Shown here one piece after another: positions 8,113 through 61,369 of a stretch of 64,000 nucleotides of DNA. The stretch's first letter is position 1, and every line of letters starts with the position of its first letter. A program made the translations under genes and the position numbers. Origin of the DNA: Bdellovibrionales bacterium (GTDB taxonomy: Bacteria > Pseudomonadota > Alphaproteobacteria > UBA9219); contig JBEOJY010000005.1 of the NCBI GenBank assembly GCA_040275305.1, positions 393-64,392 of the forward strand, in the 5' to 3' direction. Under the pieces are notes generated by a model, which was not told where the DNA came from, did not search any database, and was given only the letters and a program-made list of their open reading frames with translations.

Positions 8113-8124
8113 GGTCTTGATCCT

Positions 8125-8240
8125 TTCTTTTCCGGTTGATCCACCACGTGTCGTAAAGAGCCTTCCTGTTTCGTGAGGAAGACACCGGATGGTTCACGGC
8201 GGGATTGACCGCAGGGAACCGTGACACGTGTGAGTTTTTA
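8125..8240 (-). promoter_or_regulatory. Probable structured rpsB 5' leader (S2-responsive, t44-like)
   Basis: gacacgtg (8223-8230) and cacgtgtc (8145-8152) can close a long stem just before the RBS; this is the position of known rpsB leaders. Confidence 0.45.
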
Positions 8241-31335: not shown

Positions 31336-32061
31336 ATGGCCGGACATTCCCATGCCAAGAACGTGATGCACCAAAAGGGCGTCAGCGACGCGAAGAAGGC
31401 GAAAATCTTCAACAAACTTGCGCGCGAAATTATGGTTGCGAGCAAGCAGGGGTTGCCTGATCCGGCGTTTAATCCCCGTCTTCGAGCGGCGGTATTGGCT
31501 GCGAGGAAGGGTAACCTTCCGCGCGAGCGCATCGACCGCGCGATCAAATCAGGCCAACCCGGAGGCGATGACGGCGCGAATTATGAGGAAGTGCGTTACG
31601 AAGGGTATGGGCCGGGAGGCATCGCTTTGATCGTCGAGGCGCTGACAGACAACCGCAATCGCACGGCTTCGGAACTTCGCACCGCGTTTTCCAAGAATGG
31701 CGGGACGATGGGCGAAAGCGGGTCGGTATCCTATATGTTCGATCGTAAGGGCGTTATCGTTTATCAGGCCAAGGTCGCCACCCCGGATGCTATGCTGGAG
31801 GCCGTTATTGAGGCTGGTGGCGATAATGTCGATTCTGATTCTGACGCTCATGAAATAACATGTCAGGTCGAGGATTTTGGAGCGGTTCGCTCCGCGCTGG
31901 AAGCCAAATTCGGCGAGCCGGAGAGCGCCAAGCTTGATTGGCTGCCCAAGACCGAAACGGCGGTTACTGGTCAGGTTGCGCAGGATTTGGCGCGGCTTGT
32001 GGAGGTTCTCGAAGACAATGACGATGCGCAGAATGTTATTACCAACGCAGCCGATGGGTGA
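31336..32061 (+). CDS. yebC: YebC/PmpR-family protein
   Basis: MAGHS, NPRLR, YEGYGPGG and TDNRNRT motifs. Confidence 0.95.
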   Translation: MAGHSHAKNVMHQKGVSDAKKAKIFNKLAREIMVASKQGLPDPAFNPRLRAAVLAARKGNLPRERIDRAIKSGQPGGDDGANYEEVRYEGYGPGGIALIVEALTDNRNRTASELRTAFSKNGGTMGESGSVSYMFDRKGVIVYQAKVATPDAMLEAVIEAGGDNVDSDSDAHEITCQVEDFGAVRSALEAKFGEPESAKLDWLPKTETAVTGQVAQDLARLVEVLEDNDDAQNVITNAADG

Positions 32062-32079: not shown

Positions 32080-32122
32080 AAAAAAAGGGGTCTTGGCTTT
32101 ATGTGGCTAAGACCCCTTTTTT
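32080..32122. terminator. Bidirectional intrinsic terminator
   Basis: aaaaaaaggggtcttggc-loop-gctaagacccctttttt between convergent yebC and the FapF-like gene. Confidence 0.85.
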
Positions 32123-32139: not shown

Positions 32140-33483
32140 TTAATTGCCAAAGGCTTGCAGGGCAACGGGCACACGGAAGGTAACCTGAGCGTCCGGCGCA
32201 TCGCGCGTGATACCTGCGGCCACGTTCATATTCACATGCACGCGATTGTTCACTTTGAACGAGAAGCCAGTTAGCGTCGATCCAACCTGAAGCGAATCGC
32301 CACGTTGGGAGACGCCGCCGATTTCTGTGGTTGTGGGCCTGACGTAGGCATGTTCATAGCCCAGCGTGAAGGACAGGCGGTCATTGAGAGATACGCCCAT
32401 GCCTGCGCTGGCCGTGTAGGCGGCACCGGGATCAACTCTGCCGATGGCGCTGCCCGCAACAGTGCGGTTGATCGTTTCGCCGAAGCTGTGGACGTAACCG
32501 ATATTGCCGAACAGCACGGCGGGGTCGAGCGGGTAAATGGCCGTCACGCTAGGCGCGACCGACATAAAGCCGGATCCTGTCGCTAGATCTTTCGAGCTCC
32601 CATTCGCGTTGTAGGCAATCCGGTAGGGGCTTGTTCCTGTGTCTGACTTATAACGTAAATTCGCGATGAAGAAGGGCCAATCCTGTTGCCCTTTGTTGAT
32701 CTGATAGTGGGCGCCGAATTCGATATCGCCTAGTCCGTAGCCATTGGTTGTTTGATGGGCTGTCGGCGATCCTGTCAGCGACACGATGGTGTCGTATTGC
32801 GAATCCTGACGCCAGACAAATGGGACTCTGGCTTCCAGTTCGAGGCGGTTCGTGACGCCGACACGCACCGTTGTTCCCGTTGTGACGATATCTCGCGCCA
32901 CGCGATTGGCGCTGATTTCACCGATCAGGAAGGAAGGCAGCAGCGAGCCGCCCAAAAATGTGAAGTTGTTGATCGAAGAACGCGCGTATTCGGCAAAAGG
33001 TTCCAGCACTATCTTGCCGTACGGGGTTAACACGCCGCCGGTGTTGGCTAAAATGGGAACTTCGGGCGGCTTGTCTTGTCCGGCAGGGGCTTGCCCTACT
33101 TGTTCTGTAGGCATAGCTGGCGAGGCCGCCGATTGCTGGGCGGTTTGTTTTTTCTTCGGCGCGGTTGCTGATTCTTGCGGTTCACCCGAAGCGTCGCGCC
33201 ATGACGATTTCTGTTTCTTGGCCAGTTGGGCTTCGAGCGCCGTGATTTTGCGGTCTTTGTTGCCGATGTCCGCTTCCAGCTTGCTGAGACGCTCTTGCTG
33301 GCTTTCCAGTTTTTGGGCTAGGTCAGCCAAAGCCTTCTGGATGGTTGCTTCTTCTGCTTTCGCATTAGAGGTCTTGGCCATTGCCGGCGATGCCGCAAGC
33401 CCTACTACGGCAGTAAAAACTACAAGGGATGACAGCGTACGGATGCCATGGAGCATTGCGCGCGCGGACGCATGGAAAGGCAT
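32140..33483 (-). CDS. FapF-like outer-membrane beta-barrel amyloid transporter
   Basis: Signal peptide, coiled coil (IQKALADLAQKLESQQERLSKLEADI...), linker, GVLTPYG, then alternating strands with GLGDIEFG, TGSGF, DPAVLFGN and APDAQVTFRVP; start codon uncertain. Confidence 0.75.
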   Translation of the reverse strand: MPFHASARAMLHGIRTLSSLVVFTAVVGLAASPAMAKTSNAKAEEATIQKALADLAQKLESQQERLSKLEADIGNKDRKITALEAQLAKKQKSSWRDASGEPQESATAPKKKQTAQQSAASPAMPTEQVGQAPAGQDKPPEVPILANTGGVLTPYGKIVLEPFAEYARSSINNFTFLGGSLLPSFLIGEISANRVARDIVTTGTTVRVGVTNRLELEARVPFVWRQDSQYDTIVSLTGSPTAHQTTNGYGLGDIEFGAHYQINKGQQDWPFFIANLRYKSDTGTSPYRIAYNANGSSKDLATGSGFMSVAPSVTAIYPLDPAVLFGNIGYVHSFGETINRTVAGSAIGRVDPGAAYTASAGMGVSLNDRLSFTLGYEHAYVRPTTTEIGGVSQRGDSLQVGSTLTGFSFKVNNRVHVNMNVAAGITRDAPDAQVTFRVPVALQAFGN

Positions 33484-33526
33484 GGGGGACTCCAAAAAAT
33501 TTGGTCTAGTGGATGGATGCTAGACA

Positions 33527-34165
33527 CTAACGTCGTAGTACATTACGTAGACTGTTCATAGCCTGTGATTTCAGTGCCGTCAGCGCTTGATATGCCTGAG
33601 ACTTTTCTGCCACGTAGTTCGTTATATCAATCGTGATGCTCTGAATCTGACTGATGACAGCCCCATTCGCTGAGTTGGAGACTAGCGTTGTGACATTGCC
33701 TGTCAATGGGTCGGCTGAACTTGTTATAGTTGTGTTGCCTGTTGGTAACGTTGTTGTTTGAGTTTCAGGTTGAGAAACTGACGCGCTGGATGCGACTGGA
33801 TAAACCTTTGTAGTTGTACCTAGTTGCTCGATTTTCGCTGCCGCTACAGTGCTAGAGGCGGATGTCGGGGCAGTGATTTTACCGCTTGAGTAATAATTAT
33901 GTACCACGCTCTTTCCGTCGAGTAGAATTTCTGTTTCGATCCCGATGTTTATATTCATTCCGTTTGGTAAAATGTATCCCCCGTAGGCTTCTTCTAGTTC
34001 GGCGGCATTCATGGGTGATAACCCATGCAGAGCGTCGATGGATTCAGCTTTAGCTATTGAGAGGGGCGCCATGATGCCAAGGCAAGCCGCAAGGAGCAAT
34101 GCGGTTGCGCGGCCCATGAGGTTGCGGAAAAAGTCGCGAGAGGGGGTGGGGGATTTAGTGTTCAT
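33527..34165 (-). CDS. Secreted accessory protein, FapE-like (double-Gly motif)
   Basis: Signal ending AKA; PMNAAELEEAYGG|YILPNGMNINIGIE; C-terminal TTLVSNSANGAVISQIQSITID. Confidence 0.6.
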   Translation of the reverse strand: MNTKSPTPSRDFFRNLMGRATALLLAACLGIMAPLSIAKAESIDALHGLSPMNAAELEEAYGGYILPNGMNINIGIETEILLDGKSVVHNYYSSGKITAPTSASSTVAAAKIEQLGTTTKVYPVASSASVSQPETQTTTLPTGNTTITSSADPLTGNVTTLVSNSANGAVISQIQSITIDITNYVAEKSQAYQALTALKSQAMNSLRNVLRR

Positions 34166-34877
34166 GGAATGTCGGGTGGTTGATGGTGAAAGAGGAGAGC
34201 GCGTTGTGGTTGTGGGTTCGGCCTCTGCTGATTGGAGAGCGCGGCAAGGCTTTTAAGTCTGCACTATCATTGAAGTGAGCGCGGCCTTTGGCCACATTGT
34301 CGCGAATGACGAAAACAACTTTGTTCCAGATGGCTTCAAACTCGTCCAAGGGGATTCGACGTAAACCAAGTTGCGAATCGGCAACGATAACCGCCCCGTT
34401 GTCGATGCCCCTTATCACTATGAAGTGGTTATATCCACCGGGGCTTATCAATGTTAGGGAGGGCAGATCCAGCGATTGTAGCTGCTGGATCGTGAGCTTG
34501 TATCCGTCTGCGCGATATCCTTCGGACGCAAGAAACTTTTTGATATCCAGCAGCGAGAAGCCGACCTTGCGGATGTGTTCCTGATTCCCAACTTTGTACA
34601 TCGCTTGGAACACGCTTTGTTCGTCCGTGGGGATATCGTAGCTGTGCGTAAGCAATGTCGCAACGGCGGCAGAGCCACAGCTGTAGTCATAGGCTTGATG
34701 TATGACGCGCTCGTCGCGCAGTTCCTTAATGCTTTTGACCTTAACCGAAAAGTCACCTGACGGCGCGACGATCTGTCCTGCCTGCGCGTTTTTTCCGCCG
34801 CTCAATGCGACAGTGAAAATAACGATTAACAGACACGCCATTCGCCAACACATCCCGGTTGCTCCGCTTAATGGCAT
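34155..34877 (-). CDS. Stand-alone periplasmic C39 peptidase, FapD-like
   Basis: QAYDYSCGSAAVATLL (catalytic Cys), GFSLLDIK, GYNHFIVIRG (His), VADS (Asp); signal-like N-terminus, no ABC domain. Confidence 0.85.
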   Translation of the reverse strand: MPLSGATGMCWRMACLLIVIFTVALSGGKNAQAGQIVAPSGDFSVKVKSIKELRDERVIHQAYDYSCGSAAVATLLTHSYDIPTDEQSVFQAMYKVGNQEHIRKVGFSLLDIKKFLASEGYRADGYKLTIQQLQSLDLPSLTLISPGGYNHFIVIRGIDNGAVIVADSQLGLRRIPLDEFEAIWNKVVFVIRDNVAKGRAHFNDSADLKALPRSPISRGRTHNHNALSSFTINHPTFHEH

Positions 34878-35233
34878 CAGTGCATGTACACGAGAATTGA
34901 CGTGGATTGCGAAATCGAAACCTGATTGCCGGAATTCGCAATTAAGGTCGTAAATCCGCTGTTATTGCTTAAGCTGTTTCCGAACACTTCGCCTGTGGAT
35001 CCAATCGAACCGATTGAATTTTGCGACACTTCGGACTTTACGTTCGCCGAGCTTTCGTTCGTGACGATTGTATGGCCGCCCGATATGTTGTTAAGCGTTT
35101 CTGCGCTGACGCCTGATAAGTGCGACAAGGCAAACTCATCCTGTGGGCTTGCCGCGTCTTCGGCAGAGGCCAATTGCGGCGCTCCGACCAAGCTAAGCAC
35201 TAATACGGCGGAAAAGATTATCTTGGGATACAT
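34877..35233 (-). CDS. Small secreted Fap-like minor subunit/nucleator candidate
   Basis: AAGGAG RBS; signal ending ASA; VSAETLNNISGG; C-terminal SNNSGFTTLIANSGNQVSISQSTSILV. Confidence 0.6.
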   Translation of the reverse strand: MYPKIIFSAVLVLSLVGAPQLASAEDAASPQDEFALSHLSGVSAETLNNISGGHTIVTNESSANVKSEVSQNSIGSIGSTGEVFGNSLSNNSGFTTLIANSGNQVSISQSTSILVYMH

Positions 35234-35282
35234 GGCAATCTCCTTAACAATCAATATTTGTCGCTACGTTCGCGAAAGAAAG

Positions 35283-35310
35283 GGGATGGAAATTTTTCAA
35301 TTTCCATCCC
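35283..35310 (-). terminator. Intra-operon stem-loop (leaky terminator or mRNA stabiliser)
   Basis: 12-bp perfect stem gggatggaaatt/aatttccatccc followed on the minus strand by ctttctttc. Confidence 0.6.
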
Positions 35311-35326
35311 GCAATCTTATTAGGTC

Positions 35327-36139
35327 TTAGCGGGTTGATGCCGCAACGGCGGTCGAAATGCCGACGTTCGAGATCGCGCCTGTGTTGACGCTGCTGCTGA
35401 TCACGCCACCAGAGGTGCTGGTCGACACGCCATTTACGCTGCCGCTGTTGACGGATGCGTCGCCAGCGTGCTTGCCGTTGCTGTCTGCGTCGATCTTGTT
35501 GCCGGTGCTGACTTGCGAAAGCGCGGCAATCGAGAGCGCGGCGGAGATGTCATACTTGTTCTCGGTCTTGGTCGAGTTGAAGCTGTCTTCGGCCGTGTAG
35601 GTGTTGGTCGTCGTGTTGGTGGTCTTGTTCTTCGTCGTGTTGGTCGTGTTGTAGCTGTCTTCGACTTCCAGTGAGGTCTTGTTGGATGTGTTGTAGCTGT
35701 CGTCGGTCTTGTTGTTGCTGTTCTTGGTGTTGGTCGAGGTCTTGTTGTAGCTGTCTTCGATGTCAACTTCTGACGAGGTCTTGTTTTCGGTCGAAGTCTT
35801 GTTGAAGCTGTCCTTAACTGAGACATCGACATCGGTCGAGGTCTTGTTTTCGGTCGAGGTCTTGTTGAAGCTGTCCTCGACATCGACATCGACATCGGTC
35901 GAAGTCTTGTTTTCGGTCTTGGTCGAGGTCAGGTTGGCTGTGTTGAAGCTGTCGTCAACCGTCTTTGTGTCCGACTTCGAGCTCGTGTTCGTCGTCGTCG
36001 TGCTGCTCGACTTTTCGGTGTTGAAGCTGTCGGTGGTGTTGTTATTGGCTTGATCGTTGCCAAATCCATTGACGCTATCAGCAAACGCGGGCGACGCGGC
36101 GAGCATCAAGCCAAACGCGGCGAGTGCAATCTTCTTCAT
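35327..36139 (-). CDS. Secreted Ser/Thr/Asn/Asp-rich DS[F/Y]N-repeat protein, putative major amyloid subunit
   Basis: AGGAG RBS; signal MKKIALAAFGLMLAASPAFA; eight DS[FY]N motifs; mature part has no Pro, Cys, Trp or Met; first gene of the operon. Confidence 0.7.
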   Translation of the reverse strand: MKKIALAAFGLMLAASPAFADSVNGFGNDQANNNTTDSFNTEKSSSTTTTNTSSKSDTKTVDDSFNTANLTSTKTENKTSTDVDVDVEDSFNKTSTENKTSTDVDVSVKDSFNKTSTENKTSSEVDIEDSYNKTSTNTKNSNNKTDDSYNTSNKTSLEVEDSYNTTNTTKNKTTNTTTNTYTAEDSFNSTKTENKYDISAALSIAALSQVSTGNKIDADSNGKHAGDASVNSGSVNGVSTSTSGGVISSSVNTGAISNVGISTAVAASTR

Positions 36140-36263: not shown

Positions 36264-36483
36264 AAATATAATTATGATTATCGTGTTTTTGTCGTGAAGC
36301 TGCTTTGCGTTATTTCTTGTCGCTGCGATGCACGCATGCGGTGGCAGGTGGCTATGTAAGCAAGATACTCTTGCTTTATTTAGCGTTCTTTGCGTTTCGA
36401 TTGCGCTTTGCGCAGGGGGAGCTATTCTGGTCTTTGATAGAGGATTGCTGTCGCTCAAAGATTTTGAGAAGCTTCACCAATTA

Positions 36484-36731
36484 TATACTCCGTAGGATTG
36501 GAAAGCCGAAAAAGCAACAAGGGTCGTCAATCGCGACGAGCTCCCTTTGGGAGAAGACGCGATCCAGTGTCGCGCAGTATATTGCTTGGGACTCTGGATT
36601 GCCGCGTCGCTTTCCGCCTTCGGCGGAAAACTCCTCGCAATGACGCCCTGTTTGCAAGGATTGTTTTTCATGAGCCACAACAAGCGCTTTAAGAGCCAGT
36701 CATTTTCTGGGTTCCAATCCTACGGAGTCTA
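36484..36731. mobile_element. TA-ended MITE (IS630-like ends) with REP-like cargo
   Basis: Perfect 17-bp inverted repeat actccgtaggattggaa (36487-36503) / ttccaatcctacggagt (36712-36728); internal ...ctcctcgcaatgacg palindrome. Confidence 0.7.
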
Positions 36732-36907
36732 GTTAAAGTGGATAATTTCCGTAATATTCCGCAATCGTCGTCATCGCGAGCGAACGCGAAGCGATCCAGA
36801 GTCGGTGGCGATGTCGTGTGGGATTCTGGATCGCGTCGTCGCCCGAAGGGGGCTTCTCGCAATCATGGCGTTTATTGCGCGTTTAAGTAAATTAGCTGGT
36901 TTGACTA
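36730..36907. mobile_element. Second, abutting TA-ended MITE with REP-like cargo
   Basis: tagttaaagtggataattt vs reverse-complemented right end tagtcaaaccagctaattt (14/19); internal gtcatcgcgag...gcgatccag / ctggatcgc...ctcgcaat. Confidence 0.5.
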
Positions 36908-36928: not shown

Positions 36929-37900
36929 TTACAAATATTTGACGATGCTGAGTTGTCCCAGTTTTGCCGTTGCCGAGTAGGATGCTTCAAGTTGCGTTTG
37001 CAGCAGGGTAATTTTGATGCTTACTTCCGTGAGGTCGACTTTCTGGATGTCATCCACCTGATCTTTTAGCGTGTTAATGCTGTCGGATAGATTTGTTACC
37101 TGACTATTTATGGTGTTTTGGTTTCCTGCAACAGCGGTATGAATGCCCTGAATGCCTTGTAGCGCTGTCGCGAGCATTGTTGCGGCCTGATTCATATCGG
37201 ATTGATATGTCGCTGGGTCGGTGGTTTGGGTTGCGCGATACATATAGCGCAGGCCATTTATGAGCCTTTGGAAGCTCGGATCGTCGCTGCTAACCCCATA
37301 AGTGATGCTGTAGTTGTCGTCCGCAAGAACCGAGTCGGCTGTATAGGCGTTGGCGTCGGTTACTGTGCCACTTAAGACATACGCATTATCGTAATCCGGA
37401 AGCGTTAGGTTATCGTTGTGGATCGTTGCCGCTGGGGCGCCCGATAAGACGGTCAGGTCGTCGGAAACAGGTTGCGTCGTGTAGCGGATGCCTGCGTATA
37501 CATAGCGGTTGCCGACTTTTTGGTTAAGATCGTTGGATACTTGTTTCAGGTAGTTCTCGACTTGGGCTTTGATTTGCGGAATTTTCGTCGCGTCGTAGCT
37601 CTGGTTCTGAGATGCCAGAGATTTGGCGTCTGCCGTAATGCTCTCTATGTCGGATAAAGTCGTGTCATACATCTCAAGCCGCGTTTTTACGGATTTGAGC
37701 CCAGAAGTGTAAGCATCTTTTGCGTTCACGCTGTTTTGGAAATTCATCAACTGCCGAGCTTCAAGCGGGGCATAGTCCGTGAGATCGGCGTTCTTCTTTC
37801 CGCTTGAAAGCTGTTCGTTGAGCTTGCTTAGATCCTTTTGCTCCTTTTGCAGGGAGTTAGTCATTAGAATCTGCATGCCTAGCGAGCTGACGTATGTCAT
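36929..37900 (-). CDS. flgL: Flagellar hook-associated protein FlgL
   Basis: EQLSSGKK, NRYVYAG, C-terminal QLEASYSATAKLGQLSIVKYL; downstream of flgK. Confidence 0.85.
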   Translation of the reverse strand: MTYVSSLGMQILMTNSLQKEQKDLSKLNEQLSSGKKNADLTDYAPLEARQLMNFQNSVNAKDAYTSGLKSVKTRLEMYDTTLSDIESITADAKSLASQNQSYDATKIPQIKAQVENYLKQVSNDLNQKVGNRYVYAGIRYTTQPVSDDLTVLSGAPAATIHNDNLTLPDYDNAYVLSGTVTDANAYTADSVLADDNYSITYGVSSDDPSFQRLINGLRYMYRATQTTDPATYQSDMNQAATMLATALQGIQGIHTAVAGNQNTINSQVTNLSDSINTLKDQVDDIQKVDLTEVSIKITLLQTQLEASYSATAKLGQLSIVKYL

Positions 37901-37919
37901 GTGATAACCTTTTGCGTTT

Positions 37920-39335
37920 TTATGACACGAGTTGCATCAAACTTGTCAACATTTGGTTGACCGTGCTGATAATATGCGCGGCAGCTGCATAACTGTTTTG
38001 ATAAGTTATTAGATTGGACAGCTCGGTATCTATATTTACTCCCGTGCGATTGGCCAATGTCTCGGTATAATACGATTTCTGGGTCGTTACCGTGTCGTTT
38101 TGATCTATGATGCTGTTGGCCGTTTGCTGAAAATTGGACAGGATGGCCGTGGTTAGCTCCTCGTAGGTCACATTCGTGGCAGACAAACCGGAGGCGCTAT
38201 AGTTCGCCGTGTTTGTGAGACTGTCGGCAATGTCTTGCGTGTTGGTTTCTGGCAGACCAGAGGTGCCTGCGAGGATGTTGGCGTTTACCTGAAACGTCGC
38301 TGGATCTAGGGGCAAGCCGCTGGCCGTGAAGAAATGCGCGTCCAATGTTTGGCCATTTTGCGTTCCCGCGAGCGAGTCCGTTACTGCCGCGCCATAGGCG
38401 GTGTCGAATAGCCCGCTCGTTAGTCCCGTGACGAGCGTTGACAATTGCGCGTTGAGCTTTGCAATAACGCCGACGCCAGCAACATTGCTCGACGCAGCGG
38501 AGGCGCTTGTGTCGATAAAATTGAACTGAGCTTCCAGCGAGCCGCCGATTAAGGCGGTTCGCACATCGTTGCCACTGGAGTCCAAGACCGTGGTTCCGTT
38601 GAAACTGAAGGTTTCTGCGCCGATTCCTCCGTCAACCAATAACTTGCCGCTCGGCGTATACAACGCGATTTGCCCGTTGCTTCTTTGCTGGATCGTAATG
38701 TCCATATATTGGGCGACTTTGTATACTAGCTGGTCCCGGTTGTCTTGTAGATTGACCGTTTGTTGGCCAGACGTTGTCGAGGACTGGATCTTTCTGTTGA
38801 TATCTTGAATTTGTTTCAAGGTTTCGTTCAGATCCGTGACGGAGGTGGCGATGTCATTGTTGACCTGACTTGTCAGCTGGTTAACCTTGGTCGCGATACT
38901 GTTGATTGTCTTTGCGAGATTGTTGCCGGTTGTGACGAGATTCTGTTTCTGGATGTTACTTTCCGGTTCTGCGGCATACTGTTTCCATGCTGCAGAGAAC
39001 TGGGACATTTGATCGGATAGGTCCGGGTTGTCCGATGTGGAGTCGAGAATCGACTGCACTTGTTGCATGTAAGATTTCTGGGCGCTGAAGTATCCTTCTT
39101 CCGTTGTCGCCTCGACGAGGTTGAGCGTCAGGGCCTGATCGGTCGAGCGCGTGTAGCCTGAGATGGTTGAACCGCCGAATTCAGTGCCATATTCAACCGT
39201 GGTGACGGTTGCCGATTTTGCCGTGTAGCCGGCAGTATTCGCGTTCGAGATGTTGTTCGCGGTTAGCGCTATGAGGTTTGTCGATGTCCTCATGCCGGTT
39301 AGGGCAAGCGAGAAGGCTTGGGTTAGCGAAGACAT
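37920..39335 (-). CDS. flgK: Flagellar hook-associated protein FlgK
   Basis: ANNISNANTAGY, NLQDNRDQL, GVNIDTELSNLITYQNSYAAAA. Confidence 0.9.
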   Translation of the reverse strand: MSSLTQAFSLALTGMRTSTNLIALTANNISNANTAGYTAKSATVTTVEYGTEFGGSTISGYTRSTDQALTLNLVEATTEEGYFSAQKSYMQQVQSILDSTSDNPDLSDQMSQFSAAWKQYAAEPESNIQKQNLVTTGNNLAKTINSIATKVNQLTSQVNNDIATSVTDLNETLKQIQDINRKIQSSTTSGQQTVNLQDNRDQLVYKVAQYMDITIQQRSNGQIALYTPSGKLLVDGGIGAETFSFNGTTVLDSSGNDVRTALIGGSLEAQFNFIDTSASAASSNVAGVGVIAKLNAQLSTLVTGLTSGLFDTAYGAAVTDSLAGTQNGQTLDAHFFTASGLPLDPATFQVNANILAGTSGLPETNTQDIADSLTNTANYSASGLSATNVTYEELTTAILSNFQQTANSIIDQNDTVTTQKSYYTETLANRTGVNIDTELSNLITYQNSYAAAAHIISTVNQMLTSLMQLVS

Positions 39336-39386
39336 CTTTTATATCCTTAAAGCGGATTGCCTTGTAAGCGCCCGTCGAACTTCATG

Positions 39387-40688
39387 TCACTGAACCATGT
39401 TGATGGTCACTTGCAGCAAACTGTTGTCAGCGGTCACGACCTTCGCATTGGCTGAGTATATCTGTTGCGCTTGAATCAAGGTTGTGAACTCGGTCGCGAT
39501 ATCGACGTTGGATTGCTCAAGGGAGTTGGCCGAGATCGTGCCTGCGCCTGTTGTGCCTGGCACGCTGTAACGCGGCGTTCCGGCGGCCAGTGTCGATGAG
39601 TAGGCTCCTCCGCTTATGCGCTGAAGCTGGTTTTCCGCGTAGAACTGAACGATTGGGATTTGATAGATAGTTCTGGTCGTGCCGTTGCTGTAGTTGATCG
39701 ACATGAGGCCGTCGCTGTCTATGCCGAGGCTATCGAACGAACCACGCGGCAAGCCATCCTGACTGAAGTTCGTAACGCTTACAGCTACACTGCTGTCCGC
39801 ATATTGCGAGACGCCGCCGGAGCTGCCAAGAGTGCCAAAGTCAAGTGTCGTCGTTTGCGCGGCCGTGCCCGGGAAGGTTATCGACGCATTCCATTCGGCA
39901 GGGTCTCCGGCTGTGTTGATCGTCGTGGTTCCGTCCGTAATGCTGGCAATCGTACCTGCCGTTGTGCCGCCGCTGCCAGTGTTGAAGACGAAGGTTAGGG
40001 TTTCCGCGTAGGCGGGCGTAGCGTCTGGTATGCTGATATCCAGATCCCATATGTTTGTCGCTGTTTTACTCCACTCGTAGCTGAGATCGTGCGTGTTGCC
40101 GAGCGCGTCGTAGATTTTAACGGTTGAAGTTGAGGAGGTATAGGCATTCGCCGCGTTTGAAGGAAGATTGGCGCTGTATGTAACTGTGCCGGTGGAGACG
40201 GGATCGTCTAGAAGCGCAGACACCTGGATTGCCTCTGTTGACGATGTGTCTACGTTGCCTGAGCTGTCGACTGTGTAGCCGGTAAGGTAGAAACCAGAGC
40301 TGTTGACCATGTAGCCGCTTTTATCGAGCGAAAAGTCGCCTTGGCGCGTGTAGAGCGGCTGGCTGTTAAAGTTTGTGGTGCCCGTCGCATCGGTGGAAGC
40401 CGATTGCACGGCAAAATACCCTGAGCCCGATATGGCAAGGAAGGTTTCCGTATTCGAGCTGACGATACTTCCTTGCACATCGTTTTGATATTGCGGTCTG
40501 GCGCGCACGCCGCCGGGGTTGTTGACGGCGGCGTTAGAGGAGGTCACCAACTGCTCAAAGGACGTGCTGACGGCTTTGTAGCCTGTCGTTTGGGCGTTCG
40601 CGAGGTTGTCGGAGATGTTGCCGATCGAGCTTGACTGCGCGTTCAATCCGGCCACAGCGGTGGTAAGAGCGGAAAATAGCGAACCCAT
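39387..40688 (-). CDS. flgE: Flagellar hook protein FlgE
   Basis: ISDNLANAQTTGYK, YTRQGDF, YDALGNTH, LEQSNVDIATEF; start ATG 40688 behind AAGGAG. Confidence 0.92.
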   Translation of the reverse strand: MGSLFSALTTAVAGLNAQSSSIGNISDNLANAQTTGYKAVSTSFEQLVTSSNAAVNNPGGVRARPQYQNDVQGSIVSSNTETFLAISGSGYFAVQSASTDATGTTNFNSQPLYTRQGDFSLDKSGYMVNSSGFYLTGYTVDSSGNVDTSSTEAIQVSALLDDPVSTGTVTYSANLPSNAANAYTSSTSTVKIYDALGNTHDLSYEWSKTATNIWDLDISIPDATPAYAETLTFVFNTGSGGTTAGTIASITDGTTTINTAGDPAEWNASITFPGTAAQTTTLDFGTLGSSGGVSQYADSSVAVSVTNFSQDGLPRGSFDSLGIDSDGLMSINYSNGTTRTIYQIPIVQFYAENQLQRISGGAYSSTLAAGTPRYSVPGTTGAGTISANSLEQSNVDIATEFTTLIQAQQIYSANAKVVTADNSLLQVTINMVQ

Positions 40689-40774
40689 AACGTGTGCTCC
40701 TTTGCGTTGATTGGAAGGCTGTTCGTGTAGAGGGACTGTTCCGGAGGGCGCAGTCGTGATTTCGGACACACCTT

Positions 40775-61295: not shown

Positions 61296-61369
<74 letters not shown>

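Follow-up and report, generated by a model that had tools for sequence, protein, structure and literature searches.

Within a 64,000-nt stretch of DNA from an uncultured alphaproteobacterium recorded as a Bdellovibrionales bacterium (contig JBEOJY010000005.1), hereafter the window, five genes of the minus strand at 32140-36139, designated P1 to P5 (Table 1), probably encode a Sec-dependent, two-step secretion and assembly system related to the Fap pathway of Pseudomonas, where a periplasmic C39 peptidase (P3) would remove a second leader from its substrates before their export through an outer-membrane barrel (P5). By the criteria of NCBIfam, the operon lies outside Fap and represents a sister family that employs both Fap machines alongside a FapE-like protein. 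This sister family is widespread and no peculiarity of the present genome.

As one of the two model systems for bacterial functional amyloid, Fap provides the frame in which this operon has to be considered. Secretion requires the catalytic Cys of FapD, a periplasmic enzyme, as stated in excerpts of two reports on the Pseudomonas system (PMC5557850, PMC6173800), where the FapD substrate has been given as unknown since 2017 because the Fap proteins lack canonical C39 sites and where FapE is the sole Fap protein without N-terminal peptides. Excerpts of a preprint of October 2026 still name no FapD cleavage site. The present operon and its relatives likely hold the answer regarding the FapD substrate, in an undegenerate form borne both by a FapE-like protein and by a second small subunit. 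What is new here is a double-glycine leader, which provides a precise and testable mechanism together with a sequence rule for finding the substrates of such systems in genomes.

As judged from its sequence, P3 is predicted to be a catalytically intact FapD-type C39 peptidase endowed with a signal peptide. It matches the Pfam domain Peptidase_C39 (PF03412) with an E-value of 4.2e-18 (65.9 bits for a cut-off of 22), and its best NCBIfam match is FapD (NF058616; E 1.8e-39, 135.3 bits), followed by FilB (NF050078; E 5.4e-31, 108 bits, below the cut-off of 475). The residues Q61, D64, C67, H151, and D167 are invariant in all 66 aligned sequences, five of which originate from fap-type operons; the codons of Cys67 and His151 lie at 34677-34679 and 34425-34427, respectively. 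Direct reading of the N-terminus reveals a hydrophobic stretch and an AQA site, and the protein bears no ABC transporter or other further domain. Among solved structures, its relatives are the C39 domains found in bacteriocin exporters (E 1.4e-4 to 2e-3).

P5 is predicted to be a barrel of the FapF type, preceded by a coiled coil at its N-terminus. Its sequence covers model positions 5-417 of the 420 of the NCBIfam FapF family (NF058560; E 3.2e-40, 138.2 bits) and aligns with the FapF crystal chains (PDB 5o67; E 1.6e-26); it also matches FilC (NF050079; E 1.6e-19, 70.5 bits, below the cut-off of 630). The AlphaFold2 (AF2) model, built from 70 sequences with a predicted local distance difference test score (pLDDT) of 84.3, comprises (i) a helix at residues 45-101 (pLDDT >90), i.e., the coiled coil, (ii) a disordered linker at residues 106-141 (pLDDT <50), and (iii) a beta-barrel at residues 161-447. 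In the crystal structure of FapF, the barrel has 12 strands. When the model was compared with the PDB by Foldseek, the top 10 matches were all FapF chains, the best being 5o65_B (E 1.4e-21, template modelling score 0.81 by target), and the next fold match was the COG4313 channel (E 3.5e-11). Just before the barrel, at 33016-33060 of the window (P5 residues ~146-160), lies a family-conserved motif, 'GGVLTP.G', whose residues G153, L156, P158, and G160 are invariant in nine close relatives; the residues upstream of it do not match the leader register described below. For FapF, Rouse et al. reportedly raised the idea that FapD might cleave at GG motifs of this junction.

Directly behind the Sec signal peptide, both P2 and P4 carry a leader of the approximate pattern Lxxx[E/D][L/M]xxxRGG, which is the best-conserved stretch in either family and ends with the GG at residues 59-60 of P2 and 62-63 of P4. 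In double-glycine leaders, the consensus is hydrophobic at positions -12, -7, and -4 and acidic at -8, with G at -2 and either G or A at -1. The position tables of both families (63 P2-type and 62 P4-type proteins) fit this consensus. Among the P4-type proteins, GG is present in 58 of 62, position -12 is L, V, A, or M in 60, -11 is S or T in 36, -8 is E or D in 43, -7 is L or M in all 62, and -4 is L or M in 43, while R occupies -3 in 57, G occupies -2 in 59 and -1 in 61, and F occupies +1 in 55. Among the P2-type proteins, -12 is L, I, V, or M in 61 of 63, -7 is L or M in all 63, and -2 is G in 55. The leader of P2 and P4 fits the double-glycine pattern, namely the register cut by C39 peptidases, for which excerpts of PMC5557850 give GG or GA as cleavage sites. 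When 1.84 billion representatives were searched with the P4 profile, 3094 clusters were retrieved at E<=1e-3, including 2370 at E<=1e-10; among the best 150 of the 3094, the strict motif [LM]xxxRGG[FYW] was found in 121 and either the strict or the relaxed form in 143, the other seven being close variants by eye. In the titles and abstract starts of the papers listed in a literature search, no leader combining Sec and GG was found described. The motif in FapE, or the wider distribution of FapD-FapF, may nevertheless be shown already in Supplementary Fig. 18 of PMC5557850 and in Fig. S1 of PMC6173800.

P4 shares this N-terminal leader region with FapE. When aligned by hhalign, the P4 family and FapE matched at 95.9% probability (E 5.9e-9) across the 33 columns that surround the leader, compared with 1.7% for the P4 family and FapB; the P2 family and FapE aligned at 75.5%. 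Out of 401 genomes of the phylum, 31 had a match to the NCBIfam FapF model at E<=1e-10 (one of them, G443, being unpublished), five of these above the cut-off. The fap-type comparison set consisted of seven operons, three with FapF above the NCBIfam cut-off and one with genes above cut-off for FapA, FapB, FapC, and FapE. In all seven, the protein at the FapE position exhibits the same leader behind its signal peptide, with RG, then R or K, then Y or F. The leader mechanism proposed here probably applies to FapE too.

A structural model of the two partners is consistent with such a role of the leader. The predicted complex of P3 (residues 34-240) with P4 (residues 41-100) scored 0.74, against 0.11 for the best of three controls; 58 of 80 solved complexes and 2 of 110 mismatched pairs attained that mark. 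The runs share at least 61% of contacts and the partner has a pLDDT of at least 51. P4 residues 41-64 are placed against C67 and H151 of P3, with an interface formed by C67 and residues 149-152 of P3 and leader residues 57-64 of P4. Since solved complexes of peptidase-containing ABC transporters (PCATs) with their substrates exist, the model shows a likeness to these and not binding of the P3-P4 pair itself.

The three remaining secreted proteins have so far escaped classification, as neither Pfam nor NCBIfam holds a family for P1, P2, or P4. Weak Pfam and NCBIfam matches to DUF7035 and YSIRK lipase fell far under the cut-off and were set aside. All 64 P2 relatives recovered in a word-indexed search are unnamed "hypothetical" proteins without Pfam domain. 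The P4 model (pLDDT 70.9) exhibits a beta-rich body and a C-terminal helix and gave no match in the PDB at E<=0.001; in a protein atlas search, the P4-type clusters were unnamed or oddly auto-named, without Pfam family, and are taken as unannotated. P1 contains 2.3 copies of a 63-bp (21-aa) tandem repeat at 35774-35918, followed by a conserved C-terminal domain of ~60 aa related to the P2 family (hhalign 95.3%, E 2.2e-8). By eye, a Ser/Asn/Gly-rich module is common to mature P2, the P1 C-terminus, and a C-terminal stretch of P4; as far as sequence alignments go, the P1/P2 module is likely related to the Fap repeats. A gene located immediately upstream of P2 in the same orientation and encoding a secreted, low-complexity protein of 123-1363 aa with a conserved C-terminus was found by a crude filter in 38 of 63 P2-bearing loci. 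Of 25 loci, 23 have a hairpin with eight or more pairs no further than 80 nt from the P1 stop. The hairpin between P1 and P2 is likely a partial terminator or attenuator, and its location behind P1 would suit a major subunit produced in larger amounts than the machinery. In the fap-type locus L114 (3670-5229), where FapF is below the cut-off, a FapC-like protein has a long Thr/Asn-rich region with 'DTDVD'-like stretches, which recalls the P1 repeats.

Regarding distribution, the barrel is present in 8 of 60 related genomes, i.e., 6 of 36 from the same family, 2 of 8 from one neighbouring family, and 0 of 8 from another. In these eight genomes, C39 and P4-type genes are always found beside the barrel, a P2-type gene in seven (the eighth locus, L018, is cut by a contig end), and P1-type genes, as detected by BLAST, in three. 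A barrel-profile search of species-representative genomes yielded 203 stretches encoding a relative. The locus counts rest on 80 of these 203 stretches, of which seven are contigs used to build the profiles and several are cut by contig ends; C39 occurs in 72 loci, P2 in 62, and P4 in 61. A complete set, with the P2-C39-P4 order and a barrel, is present in 51 loci; the barrel lies downstream on the same strand in 18 of them, as in the window, and is convergent in 33. Eight loci have the barrel only. Locus L030 holds two barrel genes and two C39 genes. The hosts belong to the Alpha-, Beta-, and Gammaproteobacteria and to the Thermodesulfobacteriota, and include Rhodospirillales, Kiloniellales, Brevundimonas, Novosphingobium endophyticum, Pelagibius litoralis, Thiobacillus denitrificans, Sulfuricella, and Desulfopila aestuarii. 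In a tree of 76 barrels, a quick version with groups defined by how the rows were retrieved, the group of the window comprises 65 rows (99% support), besides seven fap-type (98%) and four Fil-type barrels (100%). In the titles and abstract starts of the papers listed in a literature search, no description of this FapF-like/FapD-like family was found.

Compared with known systems, the closest is FapABCDEF (FapF structures 5O65, 5O67, 5O68), with which the operon shares (i) a periplasmic, stand-alone C39 peptidase, (ii) the same barrel fold with N-terminal coiled coil and disordered linker, (iii) a gene placed between those of C39 and barrel for a secreted protein that has the leader region in common, and (iv) secreted subunits encoded upstream, dependence on Sec, and Asn/Ser/Gly-rich repeat-like modules. 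It differs by the lack of FapA, by subunits that remain unmatched by the FapB and FapC models and exhibit one module instead of three repeats, by a small subunit (P2) with a leader, by a leader ending with GG instead of the GR/GK of FapE, and by a barrel without predicted plug helix that belongs to a separate group and is convergent in most relatives. The C39 domains of PCATs (PCAT1, LahT; PDB 4RY2, 6V9Z, 6MPZ) are alike in peptidase family and catalytic residues, and PCAT leaders in the hydrophobic -12/-7/-4, the acidic -8, and the GG at -2/-1; in the window, however, C39 is a free periplasmic protein instead of being joined, on the cytoplasmic side, to an ABC exporter, the leader lies behind a Sec signal peptide and not at the start of the protein, and export would proceed via an outer-membrane barrel. 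The Fil loci (FilA, FilB, FilC) also have a C39 peptidase beside a FapF-like barrel and upstream secreted proteins with a leader-like stretch, but they lack a FapE-like gene and have different subunits, a separate barrel group, and, in the four loci considered, a shorter barrel N-terminus. Curli (CsgA/B and the CsgG channel) resembles the proposal in that unfolded Asn/Gln/Ser/Gly-rich subunits are exported in a Sec-dependent manner and assemble outside the cell, with nucleation by the minor subunit, whereas it has no homology with the present operon, a different channel, and no protease.

An earlier note, made from the letters of the window alone, had described the locus as a divergent Fap-type export system without an obvious FapA, with a stand-alone C39 peptidase and a coiled-coil plus beta-barrel protein in the D-E-F order. 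This description stands: the C39 domain is unaccompanied by a second one; the comparisons of P3 with FapD and of P5 with FapF that the note had proposed returned the E-values and the fold match reported above, with catalytic residues kept, a helix preceding the barrel, and all scores below the equivalog cut-offs; and the D-E-F order now reflects homology as well as position, on account of the 33 columns shared by the P4 family and FapE. The gene-neighbourhood survey, also proposed, found the cassette recurring in the 51 complete loci and in the related genomes. FapA (NF058556) gave no match in the operon or in the genome, which is 99.65% complete, with a positive control run alongside. FapA as a counterpart of P2 was discarded, hhalign giving only 0.7-2.5%. 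In the loci L111-L117, the FapA proteins (first gene) exhibit in mid-protein an 'ELSDxDF...SG' stretch in a register like that of the double-glycine leader; FapA as FapD substrate or decoy was unsupported by profile comparison with the P2 and P4 leaders (0.7-2.5%). According to excerpts of PMC3792158, FapA is often absent from fap operons.

Several observations weigh against the reading of a Fap-related system with a C39-cleaved second leader. The FapD score of P3 is far under the NCBIfam equivalog cut-off of 330 bits, and so is the FapF score of P5 with respect to that of 700 bits, which genuine FapF genes exceed with 760-766 bits. The FapB, FapC, and FapE models (NF058557, NF058558, NF058559) match none of P1, P2, and P4 at E<=1, and the genome searched with the FapC and FapE models (FapE at E<=0.01) gave no match, the FapE model reaching 353 bits on a genuine FapE; to this adds the missing FapA. 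The alignment of P4 with FapE spans only the leader region, that of the P2 family with FapB is a single stretch of 40 columns (hhalign 82.5%, E 1e-5), and hhalign gives 2% for the P2 family with FapC and, for the P1 C-terminus, 7% with FapB, 0.5% with FapC, and 0.1% with FapE. As for the FapF plug, a helix pinned by an E98-K401 salt bridge and anchored by F102/F103 in excerpts of PMC5557850, no such helix is predicted at P5 residues 142-160 of the AF2 model, and in the sequence alignment E98 pairs with Thr, F102/F103 pair with Val-Leu, and K401 pairs with Arg441, invariant in nine close relatives. At position -1, the P2 family has G in 37 of 63, R in 12, and A in 8, and one cleavage rule may therefore not hold. 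Finally, the complex score, obtained with our own alignments as input, may reflect memory of solved PCAT-substrate structures.

Some of these observations could be taken to suggest that the operon is simply a drifted orthologue of the Fap amyloid operon, with P1 as FapC, P2 as FapB, and a three-repeat cross-beta amyloid as product. The order of two subunits followed by D, E, and F does match, as does P2 with FapB over one repeat-like stretch (82.5%), and the FapC-like protein of L114 is Thr/Asn-rich as well; yet the FapB, FapC, and FapE models that miss P1, P2, and P4 exceed their cut-offs on a genuine operon, P3 and P5 fall well short of the FapD and FapF cut-offs, the barrels are split from the seven fap-type barrels by a branch with 99% support, P2 has a leader that FapB and FapC lack, and P1 and P2 have one repeat-like module each, not three, which altogether renders orthology improbable. 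Hardly more probable, though still unlikely, is that the GG motif stays uncut and serves as a recognition or chaperone-binding tag, P3 being a holdase or targeting factor, like the C39-like domains of some type 1 secretion systems. Inactive C39-like domains act as substrate chaperones according to excerpts of PMC5557850, and the complex model concerns binding only, not cleavage; against this stand the catalytic Gln, Cys, His, and Asp conserved throughout the 66 sequences, the need for the catalytic Cys of Pseudomonas FapD in secretion (excerpts of PMC5557850), and the small residues at -2/-1 as the best conserved of all, as expected of a scissile site.

The combination of C39 peptidase and short substrate also brings to mind antibacterial peptides, where P2 would be bacteriocin- or microcin-like, C39 and barrel its maturation and export route, and P1 and P4 unrelated cargo or accessory proteins. 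With its double-glycine leader and a Ser/Gly/Asn-rich mature part of 65 aa, P2 is reminiscent of class II microcins. This reading is nonetheless very improbable, for P2 carries a Sec signal peptide, its module recurs at the C-terminus of the P1 repeat protein, P4 has the same leader and is FapE-like, and the list of open reading frames (ORFs) shows no ABC/PCAT transporter or candidate immunity gene in or beside the operon. The least probable alternative is a Fil-type "putative pilus" system, as encoded by filABC in Acinetobacter. The matches to FilB (5.4e-31) and FilC (1.6e-19) would speak for it, together with the pairing of C39 with a barrel in Fil loci and their upstream secreted proteins with a short leader-like stretch behind the signal peptide. 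FapD and FapF nevertheless score better than these two, FilC is without a match in the genome at E<=1e-30, an NCBIfam search found no FilA-like subunit in the operon, the four Fil-type loci have neither a gene between C39 and barrel nor a P2 or P4 profile match, and their barrels form a separate group with 100% support; a literature search on the Acinetobacter FilB/FilC pilus found no paper. In the Fil-type loci L126 (4070-4747) and L128 (6360-8356), the upstream secreted proteins have a short post-signal stretch that is hydrophobic at -12, -7, and -4 and has TGQ or VAQ at its end, and one of them weakly matches the NCBIfam family FilA (1.2e-13), which suggests that the Fil-type family may have a leader rule of its own too.

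Returning to a Fap-related system with leader removal by C39, we infer from these data export, cleavage, and fibre formation by the operon, in the following steps. All five proteins would be carried across the inner membrane by Sec. In the periplasm, P3 would bind the amphipathic leaders of P4 and P2 and cut after GG, and this cleavage would license or start export via the presumably trimeric P5 channel. Mature P4, FapE-like, and P2 would remain at the surface as anchor, adaptor, or nucleator. The leaderless P1 would follow through P5 and then polymerise or dock via its conserved C-terminal module, with its variable low-complexity repeats forming the exposed fibre or matrix. P1 is proposed to be made in excess because the hairpin behind its gene attenuates read-through.

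Beyond this operon, there is about an even chance that a large unnamed class of such systems exists, in which a Sec signal peptide and a double-glycine leader would together constitute the address of substrates and a free periplasmic C39 peptidase would license export through a FapF-type barrel, the GR/GK variant being the FapD site in Pseudomonas FapE. The extent of this class is indicated by at least 203 matches among species-representative genomes and ~3000 P4-type protein clusters. The FapD/FapF modules also appear to serve a far wider set of unannotated surface proteins than the Fap amyloid, namely in Alphaproteobacteria, sulfur-oxidising Betaproteobacteria, and Thermodesulfobacteriota, with long and highly variable low-complexity subunits.

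The layout of the locus also agrees with the earlier note, which had reported five co-oriented genes in the present order, signal-like N-termini on all of them, two overlapping junctions, and a closing terminator. The same five minus-strand ORFs were recovered, all in one orientation (Table 1), and direct reading of each N-terminus reveals basic residues at the beginning, then a hydrophobic segment and an AxA-like (small-x-small) site. P2 and P3 overlap by 1 nt and P3 and P4 by 11 nt, with gaps of 72 nt between P1 and P2 and of 31 nt between P4 and P5. For P2, the gene call of the database starts from Met8 (118 aa); for P5, an alternative start is the inner ATG at 33483, used by the earlier note. 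The closing terminator has a stem at 32116-32109/32094-32087 followed by seven T (-23.8 kcal/mol, z -6.2, none of 200 shuffles as good) and was skipped by a consensus terminator scan because its loop is of 14 nt. The second strong hairpin, between P1 and P2, does not figure in the earlier note.

Table 1. Position of the features of the operon in the window.
Feature	Position	Strand	Description
P1	35327-36139	-	270 aa; secreted Thr/Asn/Asp/Ser-rich repeat protein, candidate major subunit (ORF list)
Intercistronic hairpin P1-P2	35283-35310	-	-27.1 kcal/mol, z -5.6; CUUUCUUUC tail behind
P2	34877-35254	-	125 aa; small secreted protein with Sec signal, ~29-aa leader ending with GG, and 65-aa Ser/Asn/Gly-rich mature part
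P2 leader codons (residues 32-60)	35075-35161	-	From the aligned position table
P3	34155-34877	-	240 aa; predicted periplasmic stand-alone C39 cysteine peptidase, FapD-like
P4	33527-34165	-	212 aa; secreted protein at the FapE position with Sec signal, 23-aa leader ending with GG, beta-rich body, and C-terminal helix
P4 leader codons (residues 41-63)	33977-34045	-	From the position table and the complex model
P5	32140-33495	-	451 aa, TTG start; predicted FapF-like outer-membrane transporter
Intrinsic terminator closing the operon	32080-32116	-	From folding energy; A-run on one side, T-run on the other

The genes flanking the operon appear unrelated to it. Downstream, a convergent gene ending at 32061 adjoins the terminator, and upstream, P1 is preceded by a 790-bp spacer. 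A sigma-70 promoter scan gave 4 sites where 3.4 were expected; the number being near chance, no promoter is claimed. A scan with Rfam assigned the operon neither a riboswitch nor any other RNA family, and its gathering-level matches elsewhere in the window are an rpsB small RNA (sRNA)/leader at 8118-8234 (45.3 bits) and a tRNA at 61296-61366 (74.1 bits). Further upstream, at 36929-40769, three minus-strand ORFs (323, 471, and 460 aa) look, from a reading of their sequences, like flagellar hook-associated and hook proteins. The spacer itself contains, at 36480-36730, an element of ~250 bp resembling a miniature inverted-repeat transposable element, with terminal inverted repeats of 29 nt; it has 43 matches in its own genome, itself included, and a second, partial copy lies at ~36788-36863.

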